64,000 nt of DNA from a virus. A program made the position numbers and the translations under genes. The DNA is taken from IMG/VR virus record IMGVR_UViG_3300035701_000001; one strand, 5' to 3'. Under the pieces are notes generated by a model. That model saw nothing but the letters and a program-made list of their open reading frames with translations. It had not been told where the DNA came from and searched no databases. Shown here piece by piece: positions 7,345 to 61,948 of the stretch (the first letter of the stretch is position 1; every line of letters starts with the position of its first letter).

Positions 7345-7805
7345 CCACCCCACAGATCGACACGGAGGCCATTGCCAAGGCTTTGGGGGCCGAGCGGATG
7401 AGCAGGGAAGACCTTGTCCTGGATCGCATGCGGCTCTCCAACGAACTGGCACGGGTCCACTCGATCCTCGAACTCGTGCGCGACGAGGTCATAGGACTTC
7501 ATCAGCGCCAGGAGTCCTGCAATGAAGCAGCTTGGCATCTGAACCGGGAAGAAGAAGCCATCGACCGGGAACGGCTGAGGGGGAAGGCTTCGGCTTACGG
7601 GCACTCGGCCGAACTCATCGAAGCCGTATTGCCGAAACAGGATCACCACGAAGAACACGAAGGACACGAAGGATCGGACGGACAGGACTCCGCGCTCTCC
7701 GCGTCCTTGGCGGTGGAAAAGACCGGAAAAATCACCACGGAGGACACAGAGAACGCGGAGGATCTGGCTGAACTCCGTAAACTCCGCGATCTCCGTGTCC
7801 TCTGA
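7341..7805 (+). CDS. hypothetical protein, C-terminus extended by repeat cluster A
   Basis: ATGA coupling; tail HHEEHEGHEG...TTEDTENAE...LRDLRVL is translated repeat DNA. Confidence 0.65.
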   Translation: MTTPQIDTEAIAKALGAERMSREDLVLDRMRLSNELARVHSILELVRDEVIGLHQRQESCNEAAWHLNREEEAIDRERLRGKASAYGHSAELIEAVLPKQDHHEEHEGHEGSDGQDSALSASLAVEKTGKITTEDTENAEDLAELRKLRDLRVL

Positions 7806-7897
7806 GGTGAAAGAGAATGGCAGGATCACCACGAAGAACACGAAGGACACAAAGAATCGGACCGACTGAACTCCGCGATCCCTGCGTTCTCATCGGT
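7645..7897. repeat. nonamer-based inverted-repeat cluster A (L-R x3)
   Basis: Alternating ACCACGAAGAACACGAAGGACACGAAG-type and CTCCGCGNTCTCCGCGTCCTNNGCGGT-type 27-bp arms. Confidence 0.9.
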
Positions 7898-7915
7898 GGA
7901 AAAGGACGGTGAAAA

Positions 7916-8320
7916 GTGGGTTTTTATACCTTCGAGAAGATCAAGAGGAACCGCAAGGTCTACTGGCAGTGCGTCGTGTGCGGGCGCAACTTCCAGAAAT
8001 CCAAGACGGTCACGCATACCGTCAACCCGTTCAACCGCAACGAGCGAGGAGAGGTCCGGAGCCGAGGAGAGGTCTCCGATTGTGCCCAGGTGGAACTGGA
8101 TGCCTGGGCAAGGTCGATCCCGCCTCTGTGTGGCCATTGTCATGAGAAATGGGAACTCGTCCCCGAGATCGTCACCACGGATGGATTTGGCCATCCAAAC
8201 GGCGTTTTGCACGATGTACCGGTCTGCCGGTTCTGCAGGGCTCGGTCTGGCCATCCCCATGCGGAAGGCTGCGAAGCATTGAAAGAGAAGGAAGAAACAA
8301 TGACTTTGTCGAAGGAGTGA
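7916..8320 (+). CDS. Zn-ribbon hypothetical protein
   Basis: CVVC, CGHC, CRFC pairs. Confidence 0.65.
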   Translation: MGFYTFEKIKRNRKVYWQCVVCGRNFQKSKTVTHTVNPFNRNERGEVRSRGEVSDCAQVELDAWARSIPPLCGHCHEKWELVPEIVTTDGFGHPNGVLHDVPVCRFCRARSGHPHAEGCEALKEKEETMTLSKE

Positions 8321-21440: not shown

Positions 21441-21687
21441 CTCCGCGTCCTCCGCGTCCTCTGCGGTGGAAAAGAAGGGCAGGATCACCACGAAGAACAC
21501 GAAGAACACGAAGGATCGGTCCGAACTCCGCGTTCTCCGCGTTCTCTGCGGTGGAAAAGAAGGGCAGAATCACCACGAAGAACACGAAGAACACGAAGGA
21601 TCGGACGGACCAAACTCCGCGTTCTCCGCGTCCTCTGCGGTGGAAAAGAAGGGCAGGATCACCACGAAGAACACGAAGAACACGAAG
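21441..21687. repeat. nonamer-based inverted-repeat cluster B (R-L x3)
   Basis: Three near-identical 73-bp units CTCCGCGTYCTCCGCGTYCTCTGCGGT-GGAAAAGAAGGGCAGRATC-ACCACGAAGAACACGAAGAACACGAAG starting at 21441, 21526 and 21615. Confidence 0.95.
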
Positions 21688-21701
21688 AAGGAAACCAAGG
21701 C

Positions 21702-25564: not shown

Positions 25565-25578
25565 CAAGGCGAGCCGAT

Positions 25579-25836
25579 CTCCGCGTTTTCCGCGTTCTTT
25601 GCGGTAGAAAAGAACGGAGGGATCACCACGAAGAACACGAAGAACACGAAGGATCGGATGGGCCGGACTCCGCGTTCTCCGCGTTCTCAGCAGTAGATTT
25701 CCTCTCCGGATTTCTACCACGAAGAACACGAAGGACATGAAGGAAGACGGAGGACCCTCTGATCTCCGCGTTCTCCGCGTTCTCAGCGGTAGAAAAGACT
25801 GAAAGAACCACCACGGAGGACGCGGAGGACACGGAG
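25579..25836. repeat. nonamer-based inverted-repeat cluster C (R-L x3)
   Basis: Same arms as clusters A and B with more variable loops; intergenic. Confidence 0.92.
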
Positions 25837-25883
25837 AGCACACCAGTCCAAACGGTTTCTCGACCTCTTGCCCATGAAACGGT

Positions 25884-25912
25884 TCGACACAGCCTGTGTC
25901 ACAGGGTAGAAG
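25884..25912 (+). promoter_or_regulatory. promoter/operator copy P4 (drives paralog array)
   Basis: TCGACA-17bp-TAGAAG; CGACAC-AGCCT-GTGTCA. Confidence 0.78.
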
Positions 25913-25932
25913 AGGGGAGAGGTTTCTCTCCA

Positions 25933-26502
25933 ATGTCCAAAACGAAGGACAAGACCCAGAAAAACAAGGTCCGAAAGGACAAGACCCGGTTCGTCTCCGT
26001 GCTCTTGCACCCTCCCAAGGGAGATCCACAGGGACTCTTGAGGGAAGGACCACTCGGGGCTCGGCCCCCCATGGCCTGGCTCTCGAAGACGAGCGAACGA
26101 AAGCACGAGGAGTGCCTGGATTGCGATCCCTGCTTCGAACTGCACCGGGAAGGCTATAGCCATTGCACGGTGTGTGAAGAGGAATGGCCGTGCAGCCAGG
26201 TGGGTAAGGTCGAGGTTCCTGCAAGCAAACAGTGGAAGCCCTGCGAGGGGTGCCCCCCCGAGAAAGAACGGTGGAGACCCTGTGGAGGGTGCCGGGGAGA
26301 TGCCATCGTGCTTGCCTGGGAAGGCCAGGTCATCGAGGGGGGCTGTACGTGGCTCACCATGAGATACCCATCGAGAATGTTCAGCACCCTTTACGTAGAT
26401 GTTGTCTTCATGCTCAAAGAGCAAACCGATTTCAGTTCCCTTCGCGCGGTGGGAGAGGTTGTCCTGCTCGATGCGAACGGCAAGGAGGTGTTCGGTGACT
26501 GA
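25933..26502 (+). CDS. array paralog 1 (GPCGARPP/LVLAWEG/LDAxGKE family)
   Basis: GLLREGPLGARPP...IVLAWEG...VLLDANGKEV; Cys-rich insert. Confidence 0.85.
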   Translation: MSKTKDKTQKNKVRKDKTRFVSVLLHPPKGDPQGLLREGPLGARPPMAWLSKTSERKHEECLDCDPCFELHREGYSHCTVCEEEWPCSQVGKVEVPASKQWKPCEGCPPEKERWRPCGGCRGDAIVLAWEGQVIEGGCTWLTMRYPSRMFSTLYVDVVFMLKEQTDFSSLRAVGEVVLLDANGKEVFGD

Positions 26503-26917
26503 CCCCTCCGCCATCCTGCTCGTTGCCACATCCGAACACGGCAAAGCCCTGTTGCGAGAGGGGCCGTGTGGAGCACGCCCCCCGATGGTCGTGCTGGGAG
26601 GGAAGGGCCGAGACGGTCCGGCACGGTGGCTTCCACGCGACCAGGCAGACTGGACAACGACCAATCGGAGATGTCCCATGTTGGGGCGGGATTTCGGCGG
26701 GGGCCATCGTGCCGTTACCGCTCTTGTTCTCGCCTGGGAGGGGGAAAACGTCCCCGAAGGCTGGGACCGCCTCACCCGTGTCGCGCCGAAGGTCTATCTG
26801 TCCCGTCTGAACTTCTTTCCCGACGGTGCGCTCGCCTGTGCGCGTGCGTACGAACGGGCCGGATTCGGGACCGTCGTCTGCCTGGGAACGGACGGCAAGG
26901 AGATGTCCGATGGCTGA
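26495..26917 (+). CDS. array paralog 2
   Basis: GTG start in GTGACTGA overlap; EGPCGARPP, LVLAWEG, CLGTDGKEM. Confidence 0.85.
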   Translation: MTDPSAILLVATSEHGKALLREGPCGARPPMVVLGGKGRDGPARWLPRDQADWTTTNRRCPMLGRDFGGGHRAVTALVLAWEGENVPEGWDRLTRVAPKVYLSRLNFFPDGALACARAYERAGFGTVVCLGTDGKEMSDG

Positions 26918-27443
26918 CCCCTCCGCCATCCTGCTCGTCCCTACACCCGAGTATACCGAGGTTCTCTTCCGTACTGGCCCCTGTGGAGCCCGACCTCCAC
27001 TGGTCGGTCGCTTTGCGGTCGCAGGGACCGCGAAGTGCCCTCACTGCCAGAAAACGCTTCGCTACAGCCCCCCTCCAACCGAGCAGACCTCCGATCTCTG
27101 GTGTTGCGATTCCTGCGACCAGTCGTGGTACGAACGGCAGATCTACGACTTCTCGGAGCATCGCTGGGAAACCTACCGGGGCTGGAAACCGGTTCCCATG
27201 CAGTGGGATCGCTGTGCACTGGTCCTTGCCTGGGAAGGCAAACCGTTGGAAGAAGGCCTTTTCCGTGCAGTCCGTGCACTGGGAAAGGACCATGGAAGGC
27301 TCGAACGGATCCAGGCGTACCTGAACTGCATCGAAATGAGGGGGATTCCCGATCTCCTGGAAACCTGCCAGTACCATAGGCTTGATACGTTGGGCACGTT
27401 GATCCACCTCGACGCGGAAGGCAAGGAGGTCTCCGGTGGCTGA
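26910..27443 (+). CDS. array paralog 3
   Basis: ATGGCTGA overlap; TGPCGARPP, CPHC..CDSC insert, HLDAEGKEV. Confidence 0.85.
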   Translation: MADPSAILLVPTPEYTEVLFRTGPCGARPPLVGRFAVAGTAKCPHCQKTLRYSPPPTEQTSDLWCCDSCDQSWYERQIYDFSEHRWETYRGWKPVPMQWDRCALVLAWEGKPLEEGLFRAVRALGKDHGRLERIQAYLNCIEMRGIPDLLETCQYHRLDTLGTLIHLDAEGKEVSGG

Positions 27444-27861
27444 CGTCCATGCCCTCTTGCTCGTCCCCCCCAAGAGAGATCCGAAGGGCCTGCTCCGCGA
27501 AGGACCCTGCGGGGCAAGGCCTCCCAATGTCCACTGGACGACCTGTCCGGTGCACGGGCGCAGTGCCCTGGTCTCCAACGACAAACTTCCACCCGCACCT
27601 TGCCCTGAGTACGCCTGCGGACCCATCCACACCCACGAGGCCCTCGTGCTTGCGTGGGACGGACAGCCGGTGGACGAGGGAATCGACCGGGCCGTCCGGG
27701 TTTTGGGTTTTCACCGGAGCCATGTCTACAAGATCGTGATGGCCCATCTGGGACTGCTGAAAGGCCCCGAGAACCTGCTGCGCTGGTTGCGGGACGATTC
27801 GGTGAATCTCGGTACGCTCATCCGGCTCGACGAAGATGGAAAGGAGATCTCCGATAGCTGA
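27436..27861 (+). CDS. array paralog 4
   Basis: GTGGCTGA overlap; CPVHG insert. Confidence 0.85.
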   Translation: MADVHALLLVPPKRDPKGLLREGPCGARPPNVHWTTCPVHGRSALVSNDKLPPAPCPEYACGPIHTHEALVLAWDGQPVDEGIDRAVRVLGFHRSHVYKIVMAHLGLLKGPENLLRWLRDDSVNLGTLIRLDEDGKEISDS

Positions 27862-28270
27862 CCCCTTCGCCGTCCTGTTCGTTCCCACCGAAGAACATCG
27901 GGAAGCCCTGCTGCACCGTGGCCCGTGCGGAGCCCGGCCGCCGATGGCACAAATCAACTCTCTTCTCGTTGGTGACAAATGGGTGCCGATCTGGGTCGAG
28001 GTGACGTATGAGTATAGACCTGGATTCGCACTCGTTCTTGCCTGGGAAGACAAGTCCGTTCTCGAAGGGCTGGAACGACTGCACCACCATGCAACGGAGT
28101 TCTCCCTCGCTGAGAAATGCCGATGGAAATGGAACCTGAAGGCCCCTTCGGACTGGATGGTCCCTGACCAGGTTTTCGAAGTCGTACAAGTCGCCCGGCT
28201 TGCCGAGGAAATGGGGCTTGGAACCGTTGTCTGCCTCGATGCGGAAGGCAAGGAGATCTCCCATGGCTGA
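27854..28270 (+). CDS. array paralog 5 (ATA at the homologous start; alternative ATG at 27836)
   Basis: ATAGCTGA overlap after AAGGAG; HRGPCGARPP, LVLAWED, CLDAEGKEI. Confidence 0.8.
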   Translation: MADPFAVLFVPTEEHREALLHRGPCGARPPMAQINSLLVGDKWVPIWVEVTYEYRPGFALVLAWEDKSVLEGLERLHHHATEFSLAEKCRWKWNLKAPSDWMVPDQVFEVVQVARLAEEMGLGTVVCLDAEGKEISHG

Positions 28271-28697
28271 TCTCTTCGCCGTCCTGCTCGTCCCCTCTCC
28301 CGAGCACCTGGAACTCACGCTCGATGGTCCCTACGGAGCCCGGCCCCCAACGGCCCGTGCCTTCACGTGCCCCGTGCACGGTCGGGGCCCCTGGTACGTC
28401 CACAACTACGCGCTGAGCACACGCTGCTGCAGTTCCGTGAAGGCAGATTCCACCTGTACGAAAGATTGTCCTCCCACCGTCGGCCTCGTGCTGGCCTGGG
28501 ACGGAAAACCCATCGAGATGGGCATGTTCTATGCAGTACGCGCTCTCGAAAAAGCCATCGGTAGACGCCACGAAATTTTTGTGTCCTGGCACTGTGTCGA
28601 CATGGACAACGTGAGGAATCTGCGACATGACTGCCTTGGCCATGAACTTGGAAAGTTCCTCAGTCTAAACGCCGATGGACGGGAGATGAACCCATGA
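28263..28697 (+). CDS. array paralog 6
   Basis: ATGGCTGA overlap; DGPYGARPP, CPVHG insert. Confidence 0.85.
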   Translation: MADLFAVLLVPSPEHLELTLDGPYGARPPTARAFTCPVHGRGPWYVHNYALSTRCCSSVKADSTCTKDCPPTVGLVLAWDGKPIEMGMFYAVRALEKAIGRRHEIFVSWHCVDMDNVRNLRHDCLGHELGKFLSLNADGREMNP

Positions 28698-29764
28698 GCG
28701 ATGTGGGAACTCCCATTCTACTGACGCGAGACGCCTTCCGAACTGCCGTGTTCGAGCGGGACCAGTACCGGTGTGTGCTCTGCGAAAAACCAGCCGCCGA
28801 TGCCCATCATATCCTCGACCGTCGTCTCTGGCCCGACGAGGGCTACTACCTGGAAAACGGGGCCTCGGTCTGCCCCGAGCACCACATCCTATGTGAACAG
28901 ACCGTAGTCTCCTGCGAGGAACTCCGGGAACGGTGTGGTATTACCCACGCCATCCTTCCTCCGCACCTCTACGATGACGGGGACTCCCACTATGACAAGT
29001 GGGGCAACCCGATCCTCTCGAACGGAATGCGGATGCGGGGGGAACTGTTCTTCGACGAGTCCGTCCAGAAAGTCCTCGTGGAAGGAAGGGTTCTCGGCCT
29101 CTTCACCCAGTACGTGAAATATCCGAGGACGTACCACCTCCCCTGGAGTCCTGGAGTCACAAAAGACGACCGGGTGCAGACCGATCTTTCGGCCTTCAAG
29201 GGGCAGGAGGTGGTGGCAACCGTCAAGATGGACGGGGAAAACACGACTTTTTACCGGAACTATATCCACGCCCGGTCCCTGGAGTACCGGCCACGGGTAG
29301 ACCGCGACCGGGTGAAAGCCCTCCATGCGGTCCTTTCCCACGAGATCCCTTATGGATGGCGCATTTGCGGCGAAAACCTCTGGGCAGAGCACAGCATCCG
29401 CTACGAGCACCTTCCGTCCATCTTTCAGGTCTTCTCGGTCTGGGACGATCAAAACCACTGCCTTCCGTGGGACGAAACGGTGGAATGGGTAGCCATGCTC
29501 GATCTACATATGGTTCCAGTGCTGTACCGAGGCCCTTGGGATGAAGCCCGTGTCCGGTCGCTCTATGTCCCGACGTTTCAAGACGAAGCGTGCGAGGGGT
29601 TCGTGATTCGAGTCACTGCAGGGTTCCGCTATGGGGAATTCCGCCGGAAAGTCGCCAAGTACGTCCGGGAGGGGCATGTCCGGACACAGGCCCATTGGAC
29701 CCGTTCCATCCGACCCAATGGTCTTCGGATCGATACTGAAGGAAAGGAGACTCCCCATGTCTGA
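28694..29764 (+). CDS. HNH endonuclease-RNA ligase fusion
   Basis: N-term VFERDQYRCVLC...AHHI...NGASVCPEHH (HNH); C-term KYPRTYHLPWSPG, KMDGEN (I), CGEN (III), EGFVIR (IV), AKYVR (V). Confidence 0.9.
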   Translation: MSDVGTPILLTRDAFRTAVFERDQYRCVLCEKPAADAHHILDRRLWPDEGYYLENGASVCPEHHILCEQTVVSCEELRERCGITHAILPPHLYDDGDSHYDKWGNPILSNGMRMRGELFFDESVQKVLVEGRVLGLFTQYVKYPRTYHLPWSPGVTKDDRVQTDLSAFKGQEVVATVKMDGENTTFYRNYIHARSLEYRPRVDRDRVKALHAVLSHEIPYGWRICGENLWAEHSIRYEHLPSIFQVFSVWDDQNHCLPWDETVEWVAMLDLHMVPVLYRGPWDEARVRSLYVPTFQDEACEGFVIRVTAGFRYGEFRRKVAKYVREGHVRTQAHWTRSIRPNGLRIDTEGKETPHV

Positions 29765-30152
29765 TGTGTGGACCATCCTGCTCATTCCAAAGAAAGAGGA
29801 CCCGTTTGGAATCCTTCGGAGAGGACCGTTCGGAGCCCAGCCCCCGACTCTGATGAACTTCTCATCCAACCCGACCTCGAACAAGTCGGGGAGATGGGAC
29901 TGCTCGGTTCACATTCCAGATCAGCCAGGTTGGAAATCTCCACCGGAAGCACTCGTCCTCGCCCACGAAAGGGGTGTGGTCGAGGAGGGGGTTGTCTGGC
30001 TCGCAATGCGGTGTCCACCGATTGTCTACGGAAACCTGTACGGCCCGATCTTCGGCATGCTCAAGGAAGGATGGGTGTACGAACCGCTTGAGGAGGTGGG
30101 TACGGTCCTCCTGCTCGACCGGGAAGGGAAGGAGATCCAGCCGAGAACATGA
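29757..30152 (+). CDS. array paralog 7
   Basis: ATGTCTGA overlap; RGPFGAQPP, ALVLAHE, LLDREGKEI. Confidence 0.85.
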   Translation: MSDVWTILLIPKKEDPFGILRRGPFGAQPPTLMNFSSNPTSNKSGRWDCSVHIPDQPGWKSPPEALVLAHERGVVEEGVVWLAMRCPPIVYGNLYGPIFGMLKEGWVYEPLEEVGTVLLLDREGKEIQPRT

Positions 30153-30189
30153 AACGGGAGATCCTGTTCGAATTCTTGGGAGGTGTCCG

Positions 30190-30687
30190 ATGGGTGACGG
30201 GAAGGCGATTCTGCTGATTCCAGCCAAGGGAGACCCGTTGGATCTGCTGGCAGAAGAGGGACCCTGTGGGGCTCTTCCGCCCAGAGCATGGTGCCACCGG
30301 ACTCCTGCTCGGGTCCACGAAGCATGCCAGGACTGCGATGATCTGCGTGATCTGCACCAGGGAGAGGACGGAGACTGGTGCTTCCACTGCACGGAGTGCC
30401 ACGAGCGATGGCCCTGTCTGGAGGCTGGTAAGGAGGTCGAGCCTCCCTCCGAGACATGGGAACCGGGTGGACGGTTTCCCGATGCCCTCGTGCTGGCCTG
30501 GGATGGAAAAACACTGGGTTACGGCTGCCTGTGGCTCGCAGAAAGAGCCGGTCACGTGGTGCCTGGCTTGATCCGAGGCAAGGTTGACTTCCTGCTCTCA
30601 GGTATCGGAGACATGCCGGGATTCCTCGGGGAGTACGGAACCGTCGTCCTACTGGATGTGGAAGGCAAGGAGGTTTCCCGTGGTTGA
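30190..30687 (+). CDS. array paralog 8
   Basis: GGAGGTG RBS; EGPCGALPP; insert similar to paralog 1. Confidence 0.85.
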   Translation: MGDGKAILLIPAKGDPLDLLAEEGPCGALPPRAWCHRTPARVHEACQDCDDLRDLHQGEDGDWCFHCTECHERWPCLEAGKEVEPPSETWEPGGRFPDALVLAWDGKTLGYGCLWLAERAGHVVPGLIRGKVDFLLSGIGDMPGFLGEYGTVVLLDVEGKEVSRG

Positions 30688-31111
30688 TGTGCACTCGGTC
30701 CTGCTTGTTCCGTCTCCCGAGCATGTCAAAGCACTACTGTGCTGTGGACCTTGCGGAGCCCGTCCTCCAATGGCACACCGTGCTGTACGCCCCATGGGTG
30801 CAGACTTCGAAATGTTCTGGTGTGGAGCACAACTCACTGAGACTCCGTGGGGAACTGGATTTGTTCTTGTCCTTGCATGGGAAGGGGAGACGGTTCCCGA
30901 AGGAATGGATCGTGTGACTCGCTGCGTTGAAAAGAAGGGACAAATGGTGGATTCAGAGCACGAAAAGCACAACAACCTTTTTGCTGCAAACTGGATACAT
31001 CAAGCGAATTTTTCGGATTTGAACAACAAGAAAAGCGGTGTACCTGCATTATTGCTCCAGTTTGGAACCCTCGTCTTTCTCGATGCGAACGGCAAGGAGA
31101 TTCAGCCATGA
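30680..31111 (+). CDS. array paralog 9 (AT-shifted codons)
   Basis: GTGGTTGA overlap; CGPCGARPP, LVLAWEG, FLDANGKEI. Confidence 0.85.
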   Translation: MVDVHSVLLVPSPEHVKALLCCGPCGARPPMAHRAVRPMGADFEMFWCGAQLTETPWGTGFVLVLAWEGETVPEGMDRVTRCVEKKGQMVDSEHEKHNNLFAANWIHQANFSDLNNKKSGVPALLLQFGTLVFLDANGKEIQP

Positions 31112-31518
31112 CGAAACGGCTTCTCTGTGCCATTCTGCTGATTCCCGCCCTGGAAGATCCGCTGGGACTTCTCCAGGAAGGCCCCTGTGGAGCCAGGCCT
31201 CCCCTGGCAATGAAGCCGGACTGCGAAATCCACGGGGCCCAGTGGATCCTCGGCAAGGAAGTTCCCTGCTGCCAGAACGCAGGACACAGCATTCTCATGG
31301 GAAACTGCGTGGAGGCCCTTGTACTCGTCTGGGACGGCAAACCGGTCCGCGAAGGGTGCGGGAAGCTGGAAGAAGCCTGGATGCCCTATGTGGCCGTCCG
31401 CTGGATTGACCAGGTTCTCCTGGAGATCCTGCAGGGAACCTCACGCAAGTCTCTCGGGGAAGATTGCCCCGGAACGCTCGTGTTCCTCGATGCCGAAAGG
31501 CGGGAGATCACTCCATGA
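31108..31518 (+). CDS. array paralog 10
   Basis: EGPCGARPP, CEIHG insert, FLDAERREI. Confidence 0.85.
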   Translation: MTKRLLCAILLIPALEDPLGLLQEGPCGARPPLAMKPDCEIHGAQWILGKEVPCCQNAGHSILMGNCVEALVLVWDGKPVREGCGKLEEAWMPYVAVRWIDQVLLEILQGTSRKSLGEDCPGTLVFLDAERREITP

Positions 31519-31925
31519 CTACTACTCCTGTCCACGCCGTTCTGCTCACCCCGGAGAAGGGGGACCCTCTCGGCCTGCTCCACGGGGAACCGTGCGGAGC
31601 CAAACCCCCCATCGCGTTTCGCGTGGACTGCAAGATCCACGGGGTTGGATGGTTCGCGGCCAACGAGAAACCCTGCTGCCTGAACGCGGGAATCCACCTC
31701 ATGGCAGGAGAGTCCACGGAAGCTCTGGTCCTCGTCTGGAAGGGAGAACCCGTTCCGATGGGGATGGACCGGGTACGTCGCTGTGGGCTCGACATCGAGG
31801 ACGACGAGGTCCTTCGGAACGCAGAAGATTGGGCGACCATCGGAATCATGGAGGGGACCGTCGTTCTGCTCGATGTACGGGGGACCAAAGGCCCTCCCAC
31901 TCACTGCAGCCGAACAGAACCGTAG
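31515..31925 (+). CDS. array paralog 11
   Basis: GEPCGAKPP, CKIHG insert, GTVVLLD with diverged tail. Confidence 0.85.
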   Translation: MTTTPVHAVLLTPEKGDPLGLLHGEPCGAKPPIAFRVDCKIHGVGWFAANEKPCCLNAGIHLMAGESTEALVLVWKGEPVPMGMDRVRRCGLDIEDDEVLRNAEDWATIGIMEGTVVLLDVRGTKGPPTHCSRTEP

Positions 31926-31937
31926 AAGGTAAATTCC

Positions 31938-32405
31938 ATGAAGAAGACCTCTGCTTCGACAATGAAACGGTCCGCTCTCCTCCTGGTCCCGGATCCGGGC
32001 TTTCCCGAAGGCCTGCTCCGGGAAGGACCCTGTGGGGCAAAGCCACCCGTCCTCGCCCGTGCGGAAGGCCTTGCCCTCAAGGAATGGGTCGATACGGGCT
32101 GGGGGCCGGACTTTACCGACCTCGGACCAGGATTCCGCAACCTCCAGCGGGCGCTCGTCCTCGTCTGGGAAGGAGAACCCGTTCCCGAAGGGATGCACCG
32201 GCTGGCGGATTGCCTGACTTCCCTGCTGGAAAAAAATCCGAACATGACCCCCTTTACGTTCCTGACACAGGGGATGTCCGGCCCGATGGTGCTCGGCAAG
32301 TGCGCCGAGCAGGCGGGGCTCGGAACCCTGGTGCTCCTCGACGAGGAAGGCAAGGAAATTCCGAGAACTGCTGACCTGGAAAGGATGGAAAGGGTGGTTT
32401 CATGA
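31938..32405 (+). CDS. array paralog 12
   Basis: EGPCGAKPP, LVLVWEG, LLDEEGKEI. Confidence 0.85.
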   Translation: MKKTSASTMKRSALLLVPDPGFPEGLLREGPCGAKPPVLARAEGLALKEWVDTGWGPDFTDLGPGFRNLQRALVLVWEGEPVPEGMHRLADCLTSLLEKNPNMTPFTFLTQGMSGPMVLGKCAEQAGLGTLVLLDEEGKEIPRTADLERMERVVS

Positions 32406-32683
32406 AGGATAACCCAGCCTGGATCGCAGCCATCCTGGCGAGCATTCCCCCGGCAGGGATCGTGGCCAACACCGAATACCCGATTCGTATAGGAGAGACG
32501 GAAGCCGTTCCTCCGCCGGACCCGACTCTTCCTCTGGACTTCTCGACCGCTGCCACGCCAAGACCCCGAAAGGGGTCCTTCCATCGGCCCGGCTTTGACG
32601 AAAAGGCCTTCTGGGAGAAGGTCGAGCACCGCCGGAAGAAGAACAAGGTGGCTCGCAAGGCCCGCAGGAAAAACAAGAAGTAA
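32402..32683 (+). CDS. small basic hypothetical protein
   Basis: ATGA coupling; Arg/Lys-rich tail. Confidence 0.6.
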   Translation: MKDNPAWIAAILASIPPAGIVANTEYPIRIGETEAVPPPDPTLPLDFSTAATPRPRKGSFHRPGFDEKAFWEKVEHRRKKNKVARKARRKNKK

Positions 32684-35779: not shown

Positions 35780-36327
35780 CAACCCCAGATCTGACCCTTC
35801 CGGGGACGATTCCTAACCTGTTGCACCGCACAAGCCCGGTCGTGCTTGATTTCGACGGCAAGCTCGTACTCGGTGTCATCGTCGGGACGGACGACCGCCC
35901 GGAGAATCAGCGAGTGGGCCCGTGGCTGGTGGCGACGGTCGAGGACTGGCCGGACTTTCCCCTCGAAGTCGAGGACATGACTCGCTCGTGCAGCGAAGCC
36001 GAGCTTTCCTTGGACCTCACCCACGAGACCGGACGGGCACACGCACGGAAATGGCTGGCAAGGCGTTTTAACTTGCCCACCGAACAAGGAACGCGGTGGC
36101 GACAGCATAGGAGAGAGTATATCGAGGACCCCAGGTGGGTCATCGAAGGAAGTAACGCCAATTCCTCTCAGGATTTCGGGTGGCCGAAGTTCGGAAACCT
36201 GCTTGTTCCATCCCTTGCCGGTCTCGACCCTGACGATCCTCGAACACTGACCGATGGCTCCAAGTGGGTCGATGTCGAAGCTCTCCACCGAGTGTGCCTG
36301 CAGGTTGCAAGTCTGGAGACCCCATGA
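35776..36327 (+). CDS. hypothetical protein (LDLTHETGR motif)
   Basis: ATGA coupling. Confidence 0.65.
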   Translation: MTTPDLTLPGTIPNLLHRTSPVVLDFDGKLVLGVIVGTDDRPENQRVGPWLVATVEDWPDFPLEVEDMTRSCSEAELSLDLTHETGRAHARKWLARRFNLPTEQGTRWRQHRREYIEDPRWVIEGSNANSSQDFGWPKFGNLLVPSLAGLDPDDPRTLTDGSKWVDVEALHRVCLQVASLETP

Positions 36328-37274
36328 TGTGTTGCAAGTCTGGAGACCACGAAATGACAACGCTTTTTCCATGGTGTGACCGACGTATCTCCGGGATCAG
36401 CCAGGGGAAGTACATCCAGCGGTTTGACTCGGCCGGAGGTGGACACCTGGTTGTCTGTATTCCCATTGAACTGAAGCACCTGCAGCCACTCATCGACCAG
36501 GAATTGCAGACAGCCGGGTTTCAAGTCGAAGAGCCCGTCGAGAAGGAAAACGATTCTCCAGCCCCTGCCGGACAGAAGGTCTTGTACGGACAGGAGTACA
36601 ACGACGCAATGCTCCGTGGGTGTCCGAAGTGTCATGCAGCCCCTGGACAACTGTGTGCGGATCGGGGTGGGAGATTCCTGCAGCGAAGCGTTTTCCACGA
36701 AGAACGCGCACTCCCTTCCAAACCAGATCCTGTCTTTCGGACATCGGAAACCCCCTCTCCTCTGTCGAGCGTGATATGTCCCACATGCAAGGCCAAGCCC
36801 GGAGAACCCTGCTGGGAACAAGACATTCCTGGCATCACAGGACGTAGGGCCCTGACCTTGTTTCATACGGCTCGTTACGAGACAGCATGTCGTGCGGCTC
36901 GTCATCCCATGCCAGAACCGAAAACAGGCAAGGGAATATCGAAGGAAGAGGATACAGGGATCTGTATCCGGTCCCTTCCCGATGACTTGCGGGCTGATGG
37001 ATGGTCCGTCGCCGTGCACAACGACTATCACCAGGATGGCAAATGCTTCACGTTCTGGTTGTTCACAAAGGGCAACCGGGCTGTGAAAGGAGAAGGGTTC
37101 ACCGATGCGGAAGCCCTGGACCAGGTTCGCAAGGGGGTGGTCATTCTCTCGATGTCCTGTCCCGCATGCCATTCTCTTCCCGGAGTCCCCTGCTACGCGG
37201 ACATGGATTATCCACCCGGAAGTATCCATCCCGAGCGCACCGAAGCCTACTGGAAACGGCCTGTTGGACCATGA
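36324..37274 (+). CDS. multi-Zn-finger protein with phage GWSVAVHNDY domain
   Basis: Three CPxC.A.PG..C...HxxR modules; LRADGWSVAVHNDY...TFWLFTK...KGEG.TDAEAL; alternative start 36354. Confidence 0.75.
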   Translation: MMCCKSGDHEMTTLFPWCDRRISGISQGKYIQRFDSAGGGHLVVCIPIELKHLQPLIDQELQTAGFQVEEPVEKENDSPAPAGQKVLYGQEYNDAMLRGCPKCHAAPGQLCADRGGRFLQRSVFHEERALPSKPDPVFRTSETPSPLSSVICPTCKAKPGEPCWEQDIPGITGRRALTLFHTARYETACRAARHPMPEPKTGKGISKEEDTGICIRSLPDDLRADGWSVAVHNDYHQDGKCFTFWLFTKGNRAVKGEGFTDAEALDQVRKGVVILSMSCPACHSLPGVPCYADMDYPPGSIHPERTEAYWKRPVGP

Positions 37275-37652: not shown

Positions 37653-37681
37653 TTGACACAGCTTGTGTCATCGAGTAGAAG
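37653..37681 (+). promoter_or_regulatory. promoter/operator copy P5
   Basis: TTGACA-17bp-TAGAAG; TGACAC-AGCTT-GTGTCA; AT-rich upstream. Confidence 0.88.
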
Positions 37682-40799: not shown

Positions 40800-41428
40800 A
40801 CCACGTCTTCTTCTCCCCTGTGGATCTACAAGCACTCGGTGGACGTATCGAGGGAGACCCGTTCGAGGTGCGAGCCTGCGATGTGGTCGAGGTCGGATGC
40901 CGGGATTGCCCTGCCTCCACGGTTTGTGATGGGGATTTCTCGGGGACTCTCTCCCCCCTGGTGCTGCCTGAGAGCGGGGCACTCGTTCTGCGCGTGTTGT
41001 GGCGAAGAATGCAGTTCCCGCAACCGTCAGATCCGATGTATGTACCTGAATTCAAACAAACCAAGCGGTACCCAGAGGGAAGTAATTGGTGTCTAAAATA
41101 TCACGGTGAAACAACCCCTTTCTGGGTAGAAGGATCTGTTCTCGACCCCTGCGAAGCTCTCGCGGCGGTACTGCATGACGAAGCCGAGAAAGCAAGGAAG
41201 GACCCACACAAAGAAGATTTATCCGACTCGAAGAAGACCCATCCCGAGCGCGCGGGGAATCCCTGCCCCCACTGCAGTACTCCCATCACCCTGCAGCAAG
41301 GAATGTTTGCCTGGAAAGGGAAGACCTTCAGCGGGCTCGTCTGCACAACCTGCAACGCGCTGTGGGACAACCCCGAAGACAGCTTCCTGCAGACGGCCAT
41401 GAAAAACCCGATGGGGGCAGAGCCATGA
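40796..41428 (+). CDS. Zn-ribbon hypothetical protein
   Basis: CRDC, CPHC..CTTC. Confidence 0.65.
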   Translation: MNHVFFSPVDLQALGGRIEGDPFEVRACDVVEVGCRDCPASTVCDGDFSGTLSPLVLPESGALVLRVLWRRMQFPQPSDPMYVPEFKQTKRYPEGSNWCLKYHGETTPFWVEGSVLDPCEALAAVLHDEAEKARKDPHKEDLSDSKKTHPERAGNPCPHCSTPITLQQGMFAWKGKTFSGLVCTTCNALWDNPEDSFLQTAMKNPMGAEP

Positions 41429-42261
41429 ACCGAGACTCGGAAATCGAGCGCATCGCGAAGCTCTTGCACAAAATCCGCGAGGCCTGGTGCTTTGCCACCT
41501 GCGATGAGTACGTTGCGCGAGACTGGGAGACAACTTCCGAACCCCATCGCGCTGAGTTCCGTGACCTCGCGGTGCAATTCCTGCCACAGGTGAACCAGGA
41601 CCTGGAAATCGAGCGCATCGCGAGGCTTCTACACGAAATCCGAGAGGAATGGACCTTCGATTTCTCGGATGAACACATCGTGCGGAGTTGGGAAACGATC
41701 TCCGAGTCCCGTCGCGCAGAGTTCCGAGACCTTACGGCGCAGTTTCTTCCACAGGAAAGTCCAAGTACACCGGTACGGGTAGAAGTTGTCTACCCATGGG
41801 ATGTGTCCTGTCCTACTTGTGGGGCTGTGAAAAGAAGACCCTGCATTGATGTTTTCCATCACATGTCGATGCCGACGTTCCATCCTTCTCGTATACAAGC
41901 TGCACTCGACAAATCCAAGGGAAGTACCCAGGAAAAACCCTCGAAATCCCGTGTCCCGTCCTTCGCAGAAAGAGAGGGTGGAATCGAGCACTGTCCGGTG
42001 TGCGGGAAGCCGTCCGATCATGCGGTCATCAAGACCACTATCGGTGGAAAAACCGAATACCTGTGTTTTTCGCCCTGGAGAGAGGGGGAGCCAACCGAGG
42101 ATGTCGACGAGGCATTGGTCTGGAAGGGAAATGAAGCCGTGGTTGCGTGGAAAGTAGGGTGCAACTGGAGCTACAACGACGAATATACTCCGGAACCATG
42201 GACTCCCGGCTGGTCTTGGAAACCACTACCCCCTCCCCCCACACTGGATGAAGAGGAATAG
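41425..42261 (+). CDS. modular protein: 2x 55-aa helical repeat + Zn modules + DUF551-like C-terminal domain
   Basis: 165-bp internal duplication; CPTCGA..C..HPSR; WREGEP...W.W.PLPPPP. Confidence 0.75.
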   Translation: MNRDSEIERIAKLLHKIREAWCFATCDEYVARDWETTSEPHRAEFRDLAVQFLPQVNQDLEIERIARLLHEIREEWTFDFSDEHIVRSWETISESRRAEFRDLTAQFLPQESPSTPVRVEVVYPWDVSCPTCGAVKRRPCIDVFHHMSMPTFHPSRIQAALDKSKGSTQEKPSKSRVPSFAEREGGIEHCPVCGKPSDHAVIKTTIGGKTEYLCFSPWREGEPTEDVDEALVWKGNEAVVAWKVGCNWSYNDEYTPEPWTPGWSWKPLPPPPTLDEEE

Positions 42262-43319: not shown

Positions 43320-43582
43320 CCGAACCCGAAGACAAGCCCCTCCTGTCCGTCCATCTGCATAACGAGGACCTTGTGCTCAAGATCCAGTATCTCTGGGTCG
43401 AACCCGAGGTCTGGGGCATCGCGCTCGCAGACATCCTGCGGAACGTCGCGGTCGCTTACGCAGGTGAAGACATCGTAAAACGCGAGAAAATCGAGGCAGT
43501 CATCTGGAAGATGATGCGGTCCGAAATGCACCGGCAGACGAGTGCCCTGCACGTGCTTTCTCCGAAAGTGGAAGAACAATGA
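43316..43582 (+). CDS. hypothetical protein (DUF5076-like W..PE.WGI.LAD)
   Basis: WVEPEVWGIALADILRNVAVAY. Confidence 0.6.
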   Translation: MTEPEDKPLLSVHLHNEDLVLKIQYLWVEPEVWGIALADILRNVAVAYAGEDIVKREKIEAVIWKMMRSEMHRQTSALHVLSPKVEEQ

Positions 43583-44025
43583 CGGATCAAGGATATCCAA
43601 GGCTGAACCTCGAAGAGGTCAAGGTCATCGTGTTCGTTCCCCAGGAGGGGGACCCGTTGGGCCTGGTGAAGGATGGGGAACATGGAGACCGGCCACCTCG
43701 AATGTCGAGGTTGATCTTCGGTGGAAGGGAGGACAAGACCGTCCAATGGAGGTCAGTCGGGGCTAGAGACCTGGTCCTCAGCTACGAACCTCCCAAAGTC
43801 AATTCGTACTACTCCATCCTGGGGCTCCTCCTCCTGTATAAGGGCATTCCCGTCCAAATGGGGCTGTGGATCCTCACAGCGACGATAGCCTGCAAGGACA
43901 GGCCCGAGTTGCTTTCCGTCTACTCGAAGAAGCAGGCGAATCAGATCGCACAACTGGCCCAGACTTGTGGAATGGGAACCGTGGTCTACCTCGACGCCGA
44001 GAACAGGGAGATCGAGTCGACATGA
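43579..44025 (+). CDS. orphan member of the 25.9-32.4 kb array family
   Basis: VFVPQEGDPLGLVKDGEHGDRPP...LVLSYE...GTVVYLDAENREI. Confidence 0.8.
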   Translation: MTDQGYPRLNLEEVKVIVFVPQEGDPLGLVKDGEHGDRPPRMSRLIFGGREDKTVQWRSVGARDLVLSYEPPKVNSYYSILGLLLLYKGIPVQMGLWILTATIACKDRPELLSVYSKKQANQIAQLAQTCGMGTVVYLDAENREIEST

Positions 44026-48168: not shown

Positions 48169-48348
48169 CTAGGAGGACTTGTCCTCGCGCGAGTCTCCGG
48201 AGTGGTTCCAGTTTGCATCCGAGATGCCATGGCATGGTCCACCGGGTTCATATGCCTCGGCAAGGGTACCGGTCCAGTCCCCACTGGAATCCGTCTTGGA
48301 ATCGTCTTTGGAATCGAACTTGTCGTCTTTGGAATCGGGGTCGGACAT
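48169..48348 (-). CDS. 59-aa acidic peptide, the only credible minus-strand gene
   Basis: CAGGAG-6nt-ATG; MSDPDSKDDKFDSKDDSKTDSSGDWTG... Confidence 0.45.
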   Translation of the reverse strand: MSDPDSKDDKFDSKDDSKTDSSGDWTGTLAEAYEPGGPCHGISDANWNHSGDSREDKSS

Positions 48349-48505
48349 TGGGTTCTCCTGTTGCGCTGGAAATACCCAGCGGGAATCTGCTAACCAGGAC
48401 ACAACTCCGGACTCATCTTTTCCGAAAACCAACCAGAAATCACAGGGACATCCGGCAAGATTTCCTTGGTTTTTCTCATACGGCAGTCCAACGGGAAGCA
48501 ACTCC

Positions 48506-49021
48506 ATGACCGTCACACCTGAAGAGCGGGCTCAATGGCGCGAACTGCTGACCTACAAGGTCCTGGCTGTCGCCTGTCCCGACTGCGGGGCGGCATCGCA
48601 CGTACCTTGCACTCCTTGTCATGGAACCAAGTTCGAACGCGAGTACCTTGAAATGGGTTCTTCCCATGAAAAACGGATCCACGCATCCTTCTTGATGTCC
48701 CCGAACTGGGCTGACGTGGCAAAGAGATTGCTCGATGCGATGGACGAGGCAGACACATGGCAATCCGGGGAACCGCCCCAGGACATCCACGAGATACTGG
48801 TCGCTGAACCCCACAAGATCTACGGCAGAGGCCACCGTGTCCACTACGAATGGTCCACGGATGGCCTGGGTTCGTACAAAATCTACGGCAGGGGCCACCG
48901 TGTCGATTGCGAATGGTCCGTGGATGGCCTGGGTCCGTACCCCTGGTCCCCCGACTGGCTCTGGATGTCCTTGCCCCCGCCACCCGATGGGAAAAAGGAA
49001 GGTCCTGATGGGAATCAGTGA
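48506..49021 (+). CDS. Zn module + DUF551-like C-domain with 63-bp internal duplication
   Basis: CPDCGA..PC..HEKR; WQSGEPP; KIYGRGHRV..EWS.DGLG x2 (48815, 48878); WLWMSLPPPP. Confidence 0.75.
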   Translation: MTVTPEERAQWRELLTYKVLAVACPDCGAASHVPCTPCHGTKFEREYLEMGSSHEKRIHASFLMSPNWADVAKRLLDAMDEADTWQSGEPPQDIHEILVAEPHKIYGRGHRVHYEWSTDGLGSYKIYGRGHRVDCEWSVDGLGPYPWSPDWLWMSLPPPPDGKKEGPDGNQ

Positions 49022-52772: not shown

Positions 52773-53386
52773 CCTCCACACCCGAACGTCTGGCGCTTCT
52801 GCGCGCCGCCTACACCCGCCACCATCTGCCCCTGCGGGGGGTCCAGACACTGGGTGGCTGGTTCTGTACCCAGGTTGACGTGGCAAACTCCGTGTGGGTT
52901 CACGAACTCCGGAGCGGAGCGCGCTACCTCGCAACGGTACTCATGAAGACGAGTTCCGAGGTCACGAGCATCTTCGGTCCGACTGGACTGGCTGGGGTAC
53001 GTCACGGTTCCGATGGTTCCCTTGCTCCGATGGGAGAATGGGAAGGGGAACTCGATGACCCACGCAAGGCGTTGCTCGATGGAGATCTCCTGCCCGACCT
53101 CTCCGACCCGCTGACCTTCCACCTGGCTTTGCGCGAGCTTGCCGAGGCAGACGGCGTTCCCAACCGGCCGCACAGCCCCAACATCGGGTTTGGCTGGACA
53201 CAGGGATCCGCCGATCAGCGCGCTGAAAGGAGCGACGAACGGGGAGAATGTCCCCCGTTCTGGACGCTCGTCGTGATGGATCCCAATGGCTGGACCTCAC
53301 GGCACTACTTTCACATCGACACGGACGATCCCATCGACGCCCTGCTCCAAACCCGCATCCAGGTACACGAGGAATCAAAGAAATGA
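52769..53386 (+). CDS. hypothetical protein, paralog of 55193
   Basis: RLALLRAAY...LLPDLSDP.T..LAL..LA...TDDPIDALL. Confidence 0.7.
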   Translation: MTSTPERLALLRAAYTRHHLPLRGVQTLGGWFCTQVDVANSVWVHELRSGARYLATVLMKTSSEVTSIFGPTGLAGVRHGSDGSLAPMGEWEGELDDPRKALLDGDLLPDLSDPLTFHLALRELAEADGVPNRPHSPNIGFGWTQGSADQRAERSDERGECPPFWTLVVMDPNGWTSRHYFHIDTDDPIDALLQTRIQVHEESKK

Positions 53387-54222
53387 CCTTGCCTCGGGTC
53401 GAAAGCTGCACCGTGATGAGCGGCAGGAATCCCCACCGAGTCCTGTCCGGAGACCTCCGGGGTTGGATGGCATACCAGGGAGACTTGCGCCTGACGGCAT
53501 GGATCGAGGTGGACGCAAGAAAGGCACGGCTCACCGCTTCCAATATGGAGGCCAACGTGCTGCAGCGTTGCGACTTGTCCGAAGCGGATCTGTCCGGTTC
53601 CTCGCTTCGCGGGGCGGCGTTCCTCGACTGCACCCTGAAAAAAACCACCTGGAAAGGTGCTGAAATTACATCGGCCACCTTCATCGGATGTGATCTCTCG
53701 GGATCCGATTTCGTGGGCGCGGACCTGGAGTGGACAACCCTGTACGACTGCGACCTATCCTTCGTCTCTTTCTGGCGCTGTGGCCTGAAGGACACGCACC
53801 TCTACTCCTGCCATGGCCCGGCCCTCTACCTGCGGTCGGACCTGGAACTGCTGCGGGAAGTCTCGGGAGGACGACTTCGGGCCTACAGGTGGGAAACCCC
53901 AGAGGGTGCCTGGCGTTCTCCTCCCTATGAAGTCGGGAAAACTTACCACGCTGCTCTCAACCGCAACCGTCGACTCGGCTGTGCTCCCGGCATCCATGCT
54001 GCAACTCTCGACTGGTGTATCGACATTGCGATGCGAGAAACCCACTGGAACGGAACCGGAGAAGCCCCGTTCCGCATCCTGGAAGTCTCGGCTTCTCCCG
54101 CCGAAGTCATCGTTCCCTTCACGCGAGCACGACTGCGGTGCTCGGACCTTACCGTGGAACGAATCGTACCCCAGGAAGAATGGCTGCATTCCCTCGAAAC
54201 TTCAGACGAGGCGACTCCATGA
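53383..54222 (+). CDS. pentapeptide-repeat protein
   Basis: CDLSEADLSGSSLRGAAFLDCTLKKTTWKGAEITSATFIGCDLSGSDFVGADL; C-terminal YEVGKTY...CAPGIH. Confidence 0.9.
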   Translation: MTLPRVESCTVMSGRNPHRVLSGDLRGWMAYQGDLRLTAWIEVDARKARLTASNMEANVLQRCDLSEADLSGSSLRGAAFLDCTLKKTTWKGAEITSATFIGCDLSGSDFVGADLEWTTLYDCDLSFVSFWRCGLKDTHLYSCHGPALYLRSDLELLREVSGGRLRAYRWETPEGAWRSPPYEVGKTYHAALNRNRRLGCAPGIHAATLDWCIDIAMRETHWNGTGEAPFRILEVSASPAEVIVPFTRARLRCSDLTVERIVPQEEWLHSLETSDEATP

Positions 54223-55196
54223 CCTACCCCCCACCCTCTTGTCTACAAGGCTCTGTCAAACCAATTCCTGAACACCCCCCCATCGTATCGGACAAGCCCC
54301 TGCTCCGGATGAAGCTCGAACTGGTACGGGGCTGCCCGTATACGTGTGGTGCCTGCAATCCGCCGAAGGACTGGCTTCCTATGTCCACCGAGAAGGTCTA
54401 TGCAGCCGTCCGGTCCTTTGAGATGGCCCGGATGACGCAAGAAGATGTCTTTCCAATGCTTCACTTGCACGGATGGGGAGAACCCTCCCTTCGTCCAGAT
54501 CTGGTTGACGTCGTTGCCAGGATTCGGGACATGACCCCGGCCCTCCTGGTGCTAAGCACCAATGGCGCGGTTCCCGAACGCATTGCAACCCTCCCTGTGG
54601 ATCGCCTTGTTCTTGGCCTGGACTCTCTCGACCCGACCATGCATCGAAAGACCCGTGGCTGGTCCCTCGACAACACCCTGCGTCTGCTTTCGGTCGTAGA
54701 TCTCTCTCACGTCACCCTCACATCCCTGGTTCACAGGGAAAACACAGCAGATATCCTTCGGATCTCGGACCTTTTCTCCACTTCGATCCGGCATGTGGTG
54801 CGACGATACGACGAGGATTTGATTGGGGGAACAGGGAACTACACAGGGCCGGACGTCGCGGACCCGTCATTCTTGAAAAAGTTCTGGAAGTGCCTAGAAG
54901 AGCGTGGATATGACGTTTCCGAAATCGGTTCCTCGGACGGAGAGGCCCGCCGGGGGGAATGCACGGTCGGCTACGATGGCCAAGTCTATCGGTGCCTTTC
55001 CCACTGGTCGACGACAAGCCCCGTGGACATCCCGGTGTACGATGCCCTCACTCTCGGAATGCCCACGGGGTGTACACGTTGCTTCTGCTGTAAACCCCGG
55101 TTGGCCGTTCGGCCAACTGCCCGAGAACCGAAGCCGTGGGATGGAGAACCCGTAAAGAAAATGGACTTTGATACGAAGGAGTTGAAAAGACAATGA
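54219..55196 (+). CDS. radical SAM enzyme with Cys-rich (SPASM/twitch-like) C-terminus
   Basis: CPYTCGAC (CxxxCxxC), GWGEPSL, STNG, GLDS; CTVGYDGQVYRC...CTRCFCC. Confidence 0.9.
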   Translation: MTYPPPSCLQGSVKPIPEHPPIVSDKPLLRMKLELVRGCPYTCGACNPPKDWLPMSTEKVYAAVRSFEMARMTQEDVFPMLHLHGWGEPSLRPDLVDVVARIRDMTPALLVLSTNGAVPERIATLPVDRLVLGLDSLDPTMHRKTRGWSLDNTLRLLSVVDLSHVTLTSLVHRENTADILRISDLFSTSIRHVVRRYDEDLIGGTGNYTGPDVADPSFLKKFWKCLEERGYDVSEIGSSDGEARRGECTVGYDGQVYRCLSHWSTTSPVDIPVYDALTLGMPTGCTRCFCCKPRLAVRPTAREPKPWDGEPVKKMDFDTKELKRQ

Positions 55197-61672: not shown

Positions 61673-61948
61673 ATGCGCTCCTACGATCCCCAACGACGCG
61701 GAGTCGTCCGTTCGAACGTGCTTACCCGTGTCCGTGCTCCTGCCCCTGGCCTCTGCCGAAGCTGCAACGAGGAGACCTATCTGCGGGAACGCGGAACGGA
61801 TGCCCCTTTCTGCTCCCTGCTCTGCCGGAATCAATTCTGGGCACGGCGCGGGGAGAACCCCAGAGAGCTTCCGCTGCGCTCGGGGGACATCCTGACCCTC
61901 TCTCCGGGCGGAATGGTGATGAGAGCGCAGGAGAGATGTTTCTCATGA
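61673..61948 (+). CDS. Zn-finger hypothetical protein
   Basis: CRSC...FCSLLC. Confidence 0.6.
   Translation: MRSYDPQRRGVVRSNVLTRVRAPAPGLCRSCNEETYLRERGTDAPFCSLLCRNQFWARRGENPRELPLRSGDILTLSPGGMVMRAQERCFS

Follow-up and report, generated by a model that had tools for sequence, protein, structure and literature searches.

A tandem array of twelve paralogous genes is present at positions 25933-32405 of the stretch of viral DNA analysed here (the window), which comprises 64,000 nucleotides (nt) of the virus record IMGVR_UViG_3300035701_000001 and is part of a contig of ~204 kb. The encoded proteins belong to an unnamed family, in which three constant blocks alternate with two variable segments, V1 and V2. 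Comparison with related sequences indicates that V1 and V2 reassort independently between genes and between genomes, with the breakpoints lying in the constant blocks. We tentatively read the array as a library of modular binders with a role in host takeover or counter-defence.

Organization of the array

All twelve genes were found as intact plus-strand open reading frames (ORFs) of 131-189 amino acids (aa), in agreement with a first-pass annotation of the window, made from the letters alone, which had described twelve genes of 130-190 aa sharing three blocks. The blocks were seen in the alignment, and a hidden Markov model (HMM) of the family scored each of the array copies at 81-122 bits, the copies being only ~30% identical overall. 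Of the analyses that the annotation had proposed, an HMM search of sequence libraries, AlphaFold and Foldseek modelling, a comparison of selection on scaffold and insert, and a comparison of array content and order among relatives were carried out.

The N block consists of a hydrophobic strand followed by a Pro/Gly-rich loop (LL.EGPCGARPP). The middle block reads ALVLAW[DE]G.PV.EG, and the C block reads GT.VLLD..G[KR]E[VI] in the family and GT.V.LD..GKE[IV] in the array. V1 is the variable insert between the N and middle blocks and is often Cys/His-rich, and V2 is the variable, mostly helical stretch between the middle and C blocks. Invariant in the array alignment are P, G, A, P, and P of the GPCGARPP block, V and L of ALVLAW, and G and L of GT.V.LD. 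The family genes of the window and the gene embedded in the array are listed below (related loci are designated L010, L032, and so on).

g1, 25933-26502, plus strand: 189 aa; Lys-rich N-terminal extension; Cys-rich V1 of the g1/g8 type; family Cys replaced by Leu
g2, 26495-26917, plus strand: 140 aa; GTG start; 86% identical orthologue in L057
g3, 26910-27443, plus strand: 177 aa; V1 with a zinc-ribbon-like CxxC...CCxxC pattern; 95% identical orthologue in L040
g4, 27436-27861, plus strand: 141 aa; V1 of the TCPVHG type; 92% identical orthologue in L010
g5, 27836-28270, plus strand: 144 aa; start at the upstream in-frame ATG
g6, 28263-28697, plus strand: 144 aa; V1 of the TCPVHG type; family Cys replaced by Tyr
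HNH endonuclease and RNA ligase fusion, 28694-29764, plus strand: 356 aa; between g6 and g7, outside the family
g7, 29757-30152, plus strand: 131 aa, the shortest copy; family Cys replaced by Phe; modelled with AlphaFold2
g8, 30190-30687, plus strand: 165 aa; Cys-rich V1 of the g1/g8 type; 92% identical orthologue in L032
g9, 30680-31111, plus strand: 143 aa; GTG start
g10, 31108-31518, plus strand: 136 aa; V1 with C.IHG...PCC.NAG
g11, 31515-31925, plus strand: 136 aa; V1 of the same type as g10; lacks the GKE(I/V) end
g12, 31938-32405, plus strand: 155 aa; final array copy
g13, 43579-44025, plus strand: divergent solitary copy; GEHGDRPP in place of GPCGARPP; HMM score 62 bits

The last of these is the thirteenth copy at which the annotation had hinted, and it was located with the HMM. 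The alignment also bore out the insert subfamilies named there, in which g1 and g8 share a Cys-rich HE.C.DC...WPC pattern, g4 and g6 share TCPVHG, and g10 and g11 share C.IHG...PCC.NAG.

The array genes are co-oriented, and neighbours overlap by 4, 8, or 26 nt, as expected from the translational coupling claimed for the array, except for gaps of 37 nt between g7 and g8 and of 12 nt between g11 and g12. The codons for the C-terminal Gly-Lys-Glu are fixed as GGC AAG GAG, which is the Shine-Dalgarno site of the next array gene. For g5, the canonical coupled start at 27854 reads ATA in the window and ATG in L010, and an in-frame ATG lies 18 nt upstream (27836) in both; because the canonical position reads ATA, the upstream ATG was taken as the start. 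For g11, the tail departs from that of the L032 orthologue precisely at the break in synteny.

Distribution of the family

A profile search of 1.84 billion representative sequences returned 853 proteins at E ≤ 1e-3, 410 of them at E ≤ 1e-10, nearly all being single-domain proteins of 115-180 aa. None of the 853 matched representatives carries a name or a Pfam domain. Searches of Pfam, PHROGs, NCBIfam, and PADLOC gave no match for any paralog at E ≤ 1, except for weak zinc-ribbon noise in g3 and g8, the best match of the profile to PDB sequences had an E value of 1.4, and the ESM Atlas features yielded nothing usable. The family is thus unrecognised by all of the libraries searched, in line with the annotation. 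No match was obtained when a consensus-like member was compared by tblastn with 50,697 cultured-phage records, and a motif scan covering 185,579 prokaryote species, with one genome per species, yielded 34 pattern matches, of which none was confirmed. No relevant prior description of the family was found in the literature.

Across the family, P11 and P30 are conserved at 100%, L63 and L65 at 99%, G23 at 97%, C25 at 89%, R28 at 87%, W45 and W67 at ~90%, D120 at 92%, and E125 at 90%, and V1 and V2 have no consensus. The proteins are mildly acidic (median isoelectric point (pI) 5.4, with 72% below 6), and no signal peptide or membrane segment is visible in the array sequences.

The metagenome contigs that carry family members are phage-like and come from marine, sediment, and groundwater sources; the family genes lie within strings of small co-directional genes. 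Their neighbours include genes for SNF2 helicase, PD-(D/E)xK nuclease, DNA polymerase A, DnaB, ThyX, dCMP deaminase, DNA methyltransferases, and HNH proteins, as well as an Acb5-like gene, from which one relative is two genes away. In L005, L006, L011, and L078/L079, family genes directly adjoin that for DNA polymerase A.

Nearly all of the 79 loci carry one or two copies. Arrays of at least three copies were found only in short contigs of one Joint Genome Institute (JGI) sample (L010, L032, L040, L057, and L059), the DNA of which is 72-97% identical to parts of the window array. The limitation of arrays to these related contigs indicates that the twelve-fold expansion is a trait of this phage lineage. 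The special feature of this genome is therefore the twelve-fold array; the family itself is a widespread phage gene present in single or double copy. In a FastTree topology based on the core columns, the array copies fall into three groups (g1/g7/g8, g10/g11, and g2-g6/g9/g12), with members from other phages placed in between.

Reassortment of the variable cassettes

The content and order of the array differ between the window and its relatives. L032 contains only g8-g11 (92-99% identical at the protein level), flanked by unrelated DNA. L010 contains g4-g5-g6, followed by a 73-aa gene at the position of the ligase in the window. In L040, g3 is followed by a g5-like gene and then by a gene that combines a g5-like V1 with a g2-like V2, and in L059 other family members precede the ligase.

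Individual genes are also chimeric. The g5 copy in L010 matches that of the window at ~100% identity in V2 and the C block, whereas its V1 is unrelated and of a different length. For the g6 copy in L010, the N block and V1 are 95-97% identical, whereas V2 is 39% identical. The gene after g3 in L040 begins as the N block of g4 (90% DNA identity to codon 30) and goes on as g5, which is the product expected of unequal crossing-over between N blocks.

The same pattern is seen throughout the family. Among 285 members, 112 pairs have V1 identity of at least 70% with V2 identity below 35%, and in another 89 pairs the relation is inverted; concordant V1/V2 pairs are under-counted in this comparison, since the databases are clustered. 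In alignments of the chimeras, identity drops sharply from ~100% to no similarity, and does so exactly at the middle block or at an edge of one of the blocks, identical V2 segments recur after different V1 segments, and many of the exchange cases consist of a cassette replaced between sequences that are identical on both sides. These alignments indicate that V1 and V2 are exchanged independently of each other, both among genes and among genomes, and that the breakpoints fall in the constant blocks, so that the recombination shuffling claimed in the annotation is supported for the array and extends to the family as a whole. When the region 25565-32500 was compared with the window, DNA similarity among the copies was confined to 40-150 base pairs (bp) at the gene junctions (71-89% identity), and these junction sequences are likely recombination substrates.

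Age of the paralogs and selection on the cassettes

Where paralogs have the same residue in the N or middle block, the fraction encoded by the same codon is 0.36-0.37. Synonymous sites are thus randomised, indicating that the paralogs are old and that the blocks are conserved as protein. Gene conversion among the paralogs was ruled out by the same value.

The ratio of nonsynonymous to synonymous substitution rates (dN/dS, omega) was estimated between the window and related contigs by the Nei-Gojobori method. The values for orthologues were 0.12 for g4, 0.15 for g3, 0.14 for g8, and 0.30 for g2, and the pooled values were 0.21 (scaffold codons) and 0.26 (variable codons). For the N block and V1 of g6 compared with L010, dS was 0.52 and dN was 0.022 (omega 0.04), and for V2 and the C block of g5 compared with L010, dS was 0.25 and dN was 0.016 (omega 0.06).

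This purifying selection on the cassettes indicates that the inserts are functional and paralog-specific, and that they do not hypermutate. The description of the paralogs as hypervariable therefore does not hold in the sense of fast point mutation, since orthologous cassettes are under purifying selection with omega as low as 0.04-0.06. The annotation had named an identical, invariant array with purifying selection across the inserts as an outcome that would tell against a diversified library; purifying selection on the inserts was observed, and an identical invariant array was not.

Contents of V1

The V1 segments of g1, g3, and g8 contain CxxC/CxxxC pairs and are zinc-ribbon-like; in the Pfam scan, zinc-ribbon families came up only at E values of 0.017-0.4. 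In the family members P0214 and P0215, V1 contains a complete C-terminal domain of the RNA polymerase alpha subunit (alpha-CTD, PF03118) between GARPP and ALVLAW, with scores of 43 and 55 bits (cutoff 23.8) and E values of 3e-11 and 6e-15, respectively. P0214 is present on 10 contigs, including contigs from Tara Oceans. V1 is therefore a true insertion site that is able to hold a whole foreign domain. The Pfam scan found no PF03118 domain in the window paralogs. A long relative, P0216, carries a Cys-rich V1 of the g1/g8 type after an extra N-terminal domain.

Predicted fold of the constant core

Confident AlphaFold2 models based on the family alignments were obtained for g7 (predicted local distance difference test (pLDDT) score 83.7, predicted template modelling (pTM) score 0.80) and for a minimal member of 121 aa (pLDDT 88.9, pTM 0.82). 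In both models, the three constant blocks form a small sheet and V2 contributes helices, and the N-block loop is modelled at pLDDT above 90.

No structural neighbour was found for either model. Foldseek searches of PDB and BFVD gave only matches with E ≥ 0.37, and comparison with the ESM Atlas gave template modelling (TM) scores of at most 0.40. Exhaustive VIA alignment against 48,161 PDB representatives gave best Z scores of 2.3 and 2.7, orphan models typically reaching 7-8. For a match of the whole domain, a Z score of at least 6 or a TM score of at least 0.5 was required. The sole matches in shape to proteins of the KilA-N/Bro-N/ORF6N type were to ORF6N (TM 0.40 over 79 residues) and Bro-N (TM 0.29); this likeness is weak, both values lying under any useful level, and there was no Pfam match. 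The models suggest that the constant core may represent a new fold.

The embedded HNH-RNA ligase gene

The product of the gene between g6 and g7 matches Pfam RNA_ligase (2e-30) and phrog_24030 (1e-128). It is 45-58% identical to jumbo-phage proteins (RsoM2USA, SCTP-2, CcrSC, and ME3), its closest relatives being those of jumbo phages of Ralstonia, Salicola, Caulobacter, and Acinetobacter. The gene does not follow the g6 orthologue in L010, lies behind a different paralog in L059, and gave an omega of 0.08 in the orthologue comparison. Either it is a mobile element that inserted into the array, or it has stayed fixed while the array was shuffled around it.

Promoter-like motif and hairpin repeats upstream of the array

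A palindromic motif, gTTTGACAC-N4-TGTGTCA-N5-TAGNNN, was spotted by eye as a repeat and then confirmed by a pattern search. The window contains eight copies, compared with 0.2 expected, each at 20-50 nt before a start codon.

Motif copies found by pattern search of the window: 1283, 13337, 22138, 25886, 37655, 45407, 59001, and 63325
Motif copy before the array, 25884-25912, plus strand: -35 element TCGACA, palindrome GACACAGCCTGTGTC, 17-nt spacer, and -10-like element TAGAAG; 21 nt before the g1 ATG

The motif reads as a TTGACA -35 element with a 17-nt spacer and an unusual -10 element, which points to a role as a promoter. A scan with the sigma-70 consensus found no promoter. The annotation had placed a promoter, P4, 20 nt before the array; the motif at this place is truly repeated and is a putative promoter. 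It is probably the main early or middle promoter of the phage, or a promoter combined with an operator for a dimeric regulator. Because the next copy occurs only at 37655, the transcription unit probably extends ~10 genes past g12.

Hairpin-forming repeats lie in the intergenic region upstream of the array and its motif and at other intergenic sites of the window.

Hairpin repeats before the array, 25575-25850: three tandem units of 88-90 bp
Other hairpin repeat sites: 7688-7960, 21441-21700, and 57046-57130

A motif search found 12 matches to the repeat unit, compared with 0 expected, and the units fold with z scores of -6 to -8. They may serve as terminators or insulators ahead of the following promoter, or represent a mobile repeat. 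For the unit at 21.5 kb, the minus-strand RNA folds at -49 kcal/mol (z -8.3) with G-U pairs and the plus-strand RNA at -31 kcal/mol (z -2.3), the genes being on the plus strand.

Neighbouring gene families

A second unannotated family of small proteins co-occurs with the array family in 29 of 76 loci, often in directly neighbouring genes, whichever of the two comes first. Its conserved motifs, WRWMPGM, PDLTDPATLGCLL, and the C-terminal EAEALVAALEAAP, are separated by variable stretches. It had no Pfam match and no match in the cultured phages by tblastn. For an adjacent pair in L007, consisting of one member of each family, the predicted complex scored 0.17 against a mark of 0.32, which speaks neither for nor against an interaction. 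Proteins of the Phage_zn_bind_8 zinc-finger type, with up to three domain copies each, form another expanded family of the window (four genes). Elsewhere in the window, a pentapeptide-repeat protein, a possible DNA mimic, adjoins a radical SAM protein, and in L032 the g8-g11 block is preceded by a helix-turn-helix gene that recalls the regulators of anti-defence operons, a single instance.

Second (WRWMPGM) family, examples: L007:4429-4827, L043:8411-8806, and L061:19-381; in the window, 61936-62466 (weak, E 5e-4)
Phage_zn_bind_8 genes: 36264-37274, 41362-42261, 48179-49021, and 57213-58193
Pentapeptide-repeat protein and radical SAM protein: 53248-54222 and 54015-55196
XRE-type helix-turn-helix gene: L032:1468-1740, 91 aa

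Proposed function and alternative explanations

The reading that we favour, which we regard as plausible but somewhat short of probable, is that the array provides a library of modular binders, serving either to take over the host or to counter its defences; the annotation had likewise thought of binders or decoys. In such a library, the paralogs would be produced together, early in infection, the V1/V2 surface of each paralog would bind a different target in the host or in a competing element, and the constant core would act as a stable frame and might also offer a docking site common to the paralogs. Early expression from a host-type promoter is probable, and the array genes share an operon with the RNA-repair ligase. 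Pro, Gly, and Leu occupy the positions that are invariant in the family, and residues of this kind typically have structural roles. In the array, Cys25 is kept in nine of the 12 copies (Leu in g1, Tyr in g6, and Phe in g7) and Arg28 in eight (Gln in g7, Leu in g8, and Lys in g11 and g12), and since the polar residues are not always kept, a frame fits better than an active site. Several points weigh against the binder library. No anti-defence or host-takeover protein was detectable as a relative. The strong conservation of the N-block loop (P11/P30, G23, C25, and R28) could mark an active or ligand site, and the zinc-ribbon-like and alpha-CTD inserts, together with the frequent adjacency to DNA polymerase A, suit nucleic-acid binding equally well. 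The motif is the sole basis for the expression timing, and some of the chimeras could be short-read assembly joins at conserved blocks.

The main rival, which we consider unlikely, is that the proteins are nucleic-acid-binding factors, such as accessories of transcription or replication, whose core would mediate dimerisation or polymerase docking and whose V1 would read DNA or RNA sites, the array then being a set of regulators. It draws on the zinc-ribbon-like V1 of g1, g3, and g8, although the Pfam zinc-ribbon matches are weak, on the alpha-CTD in V1 of two members, on the genes adjoining DNA polymerase A, and on the richness of the window in phage zinc-finger DNA-binding proteins. However, most of the proteins have an acidic pI, a Cys-rich or recognisable DNA-binding insert is missing from many members, the searches matched neither a DNA-binding family nor such a fold, and the alpha-CTD also docks proteins. 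An enzymatic role appears quite unlikely: Cys25, Arg28, Asp120, and Glu125 would form a catalytic or cofactor site for which V1 and V2 select substrates, as the high family-wide conservation of these polar residues and the confidently modelled loop would allow, but Cys25 and Arg28 are replaced in intact array genes that are under purifying selection where orthologues exist, the invariant positions are Pro, Gly, and Leu, and no enzyme fold or family was matched.

It is hardly credible that the array arose by neutral or selfish tandem duplication, or as an artefact of assembly, and that its copies have no distinct role. Unequal crossing-over can expand tandem repeats, and junction sequences of 70-150 bp are 71-89% identical between copies; yet all 13 copies are intact, they are old, being ~30% identical with randomised synonymous sites, omega between orthologues is far below 1, and the same genes recur, at 72-97% nucleotide identity, on independent contigs of another data set.

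Comparison with known systems

Tandem multigene families are known from large DNA viruses, such as MGF360/505 of African swine fever virus, the ankyrin/F-box genes of poxviruses, and the BRO genes of baculoviruses. Like the array, they consist of diverged paralogs with conserved and variable parts, their copy number and content vary among relatives, and host manipulation has been proposed for them. Unlike them, the array belongs to a virus of a bacterial host, and no similarity in sequence or fold was detected. We know of no description, for those viral families, of two internal cassettes that swap at conserved joints.

In polymorphic toxin systems, the immunity proteins of the SUKH and Imm families, reportedly treated by Zhang and colleagues in 2012, likewise form tandem arrays of small, soluble, diverged paralogs, each thought to neutralise another partner and diversified by recombination. 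In contrast to these, the phage paralogs match no Pfam immunity family, the scan of flanking genes revealed no toxin domain, and the family occurs only on phage-like contigs and not in the 185,579 bacterial and archaeal genomes. Anti-defence islands, such as those of acr-aca genes or of the Acb genes directed against the cyclic-oligonucleotide-based anti-phage signalling system (CBASS), resemble the family in that they consist of small early phage genes in accessory regions, and one relative lies near an Acb5-like gene. However, such islands hold unrelated genes, whereas the array consists of paralogs on one scaffold, and no known anti-defence family was matched.

The target proteins of diversity-generating retroelements (DGRs) share with the family a constant frame and a localised variable region in phage proteins. 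The family, in contrast, varies by the exchange of whole cassettes, each under purifying selection. Mutagenesis by a DGR was rejected, since the comparison of 25565-32500 with the window revealed only the short junction matches and no template/variable repeat pair; the Pfam scan of 40 window ORFs detected no reverse transcriptase. Variation by cassettes is known from Neisseria pilE/pilS and from mosaic phage tail fibres, in which, as in the array, conserved segments serve as joints for variable segments and several silent or active copies provide a reservoir. The array copies differ from these in that all are complete, coupled genes that are probably expressed and look cytoplasmic, and no dedicated recombinase was identified.

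Viral multigene families and cassette exchange are thus known in general, whereas a small cytoplasmic phage protein with two swapping cassettes and an unmatched fold, present twelve-fold in an operon, is to our knowledge undescribed. It is conceivable, and we put this forward with more reserve, that the family represents a new architecture and fold, in which the blocks would act both as frame and as recombination joints, two recognition cassettes would be freely reassorted, including whole domains, and the resulting combinations would be stacked in an early operon, giving a cytoplasmic combinatorial library of binders kept by an arms race with the host.

If the library reading is correct, the family would be a natural, compact (~120 aa) display scaffold with two sites, widely used by uncultivated phages against many host components, and would offer a new entry point to the targets of host takeover and anti-defence. 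It would also provide an example of cassette shuffling inside small cytoplasmic phage proteins, together with a candidate new fold. Even without an assigned function, the family, with at least 853 clusters, represents a sizeable blind spot of phage annotation.

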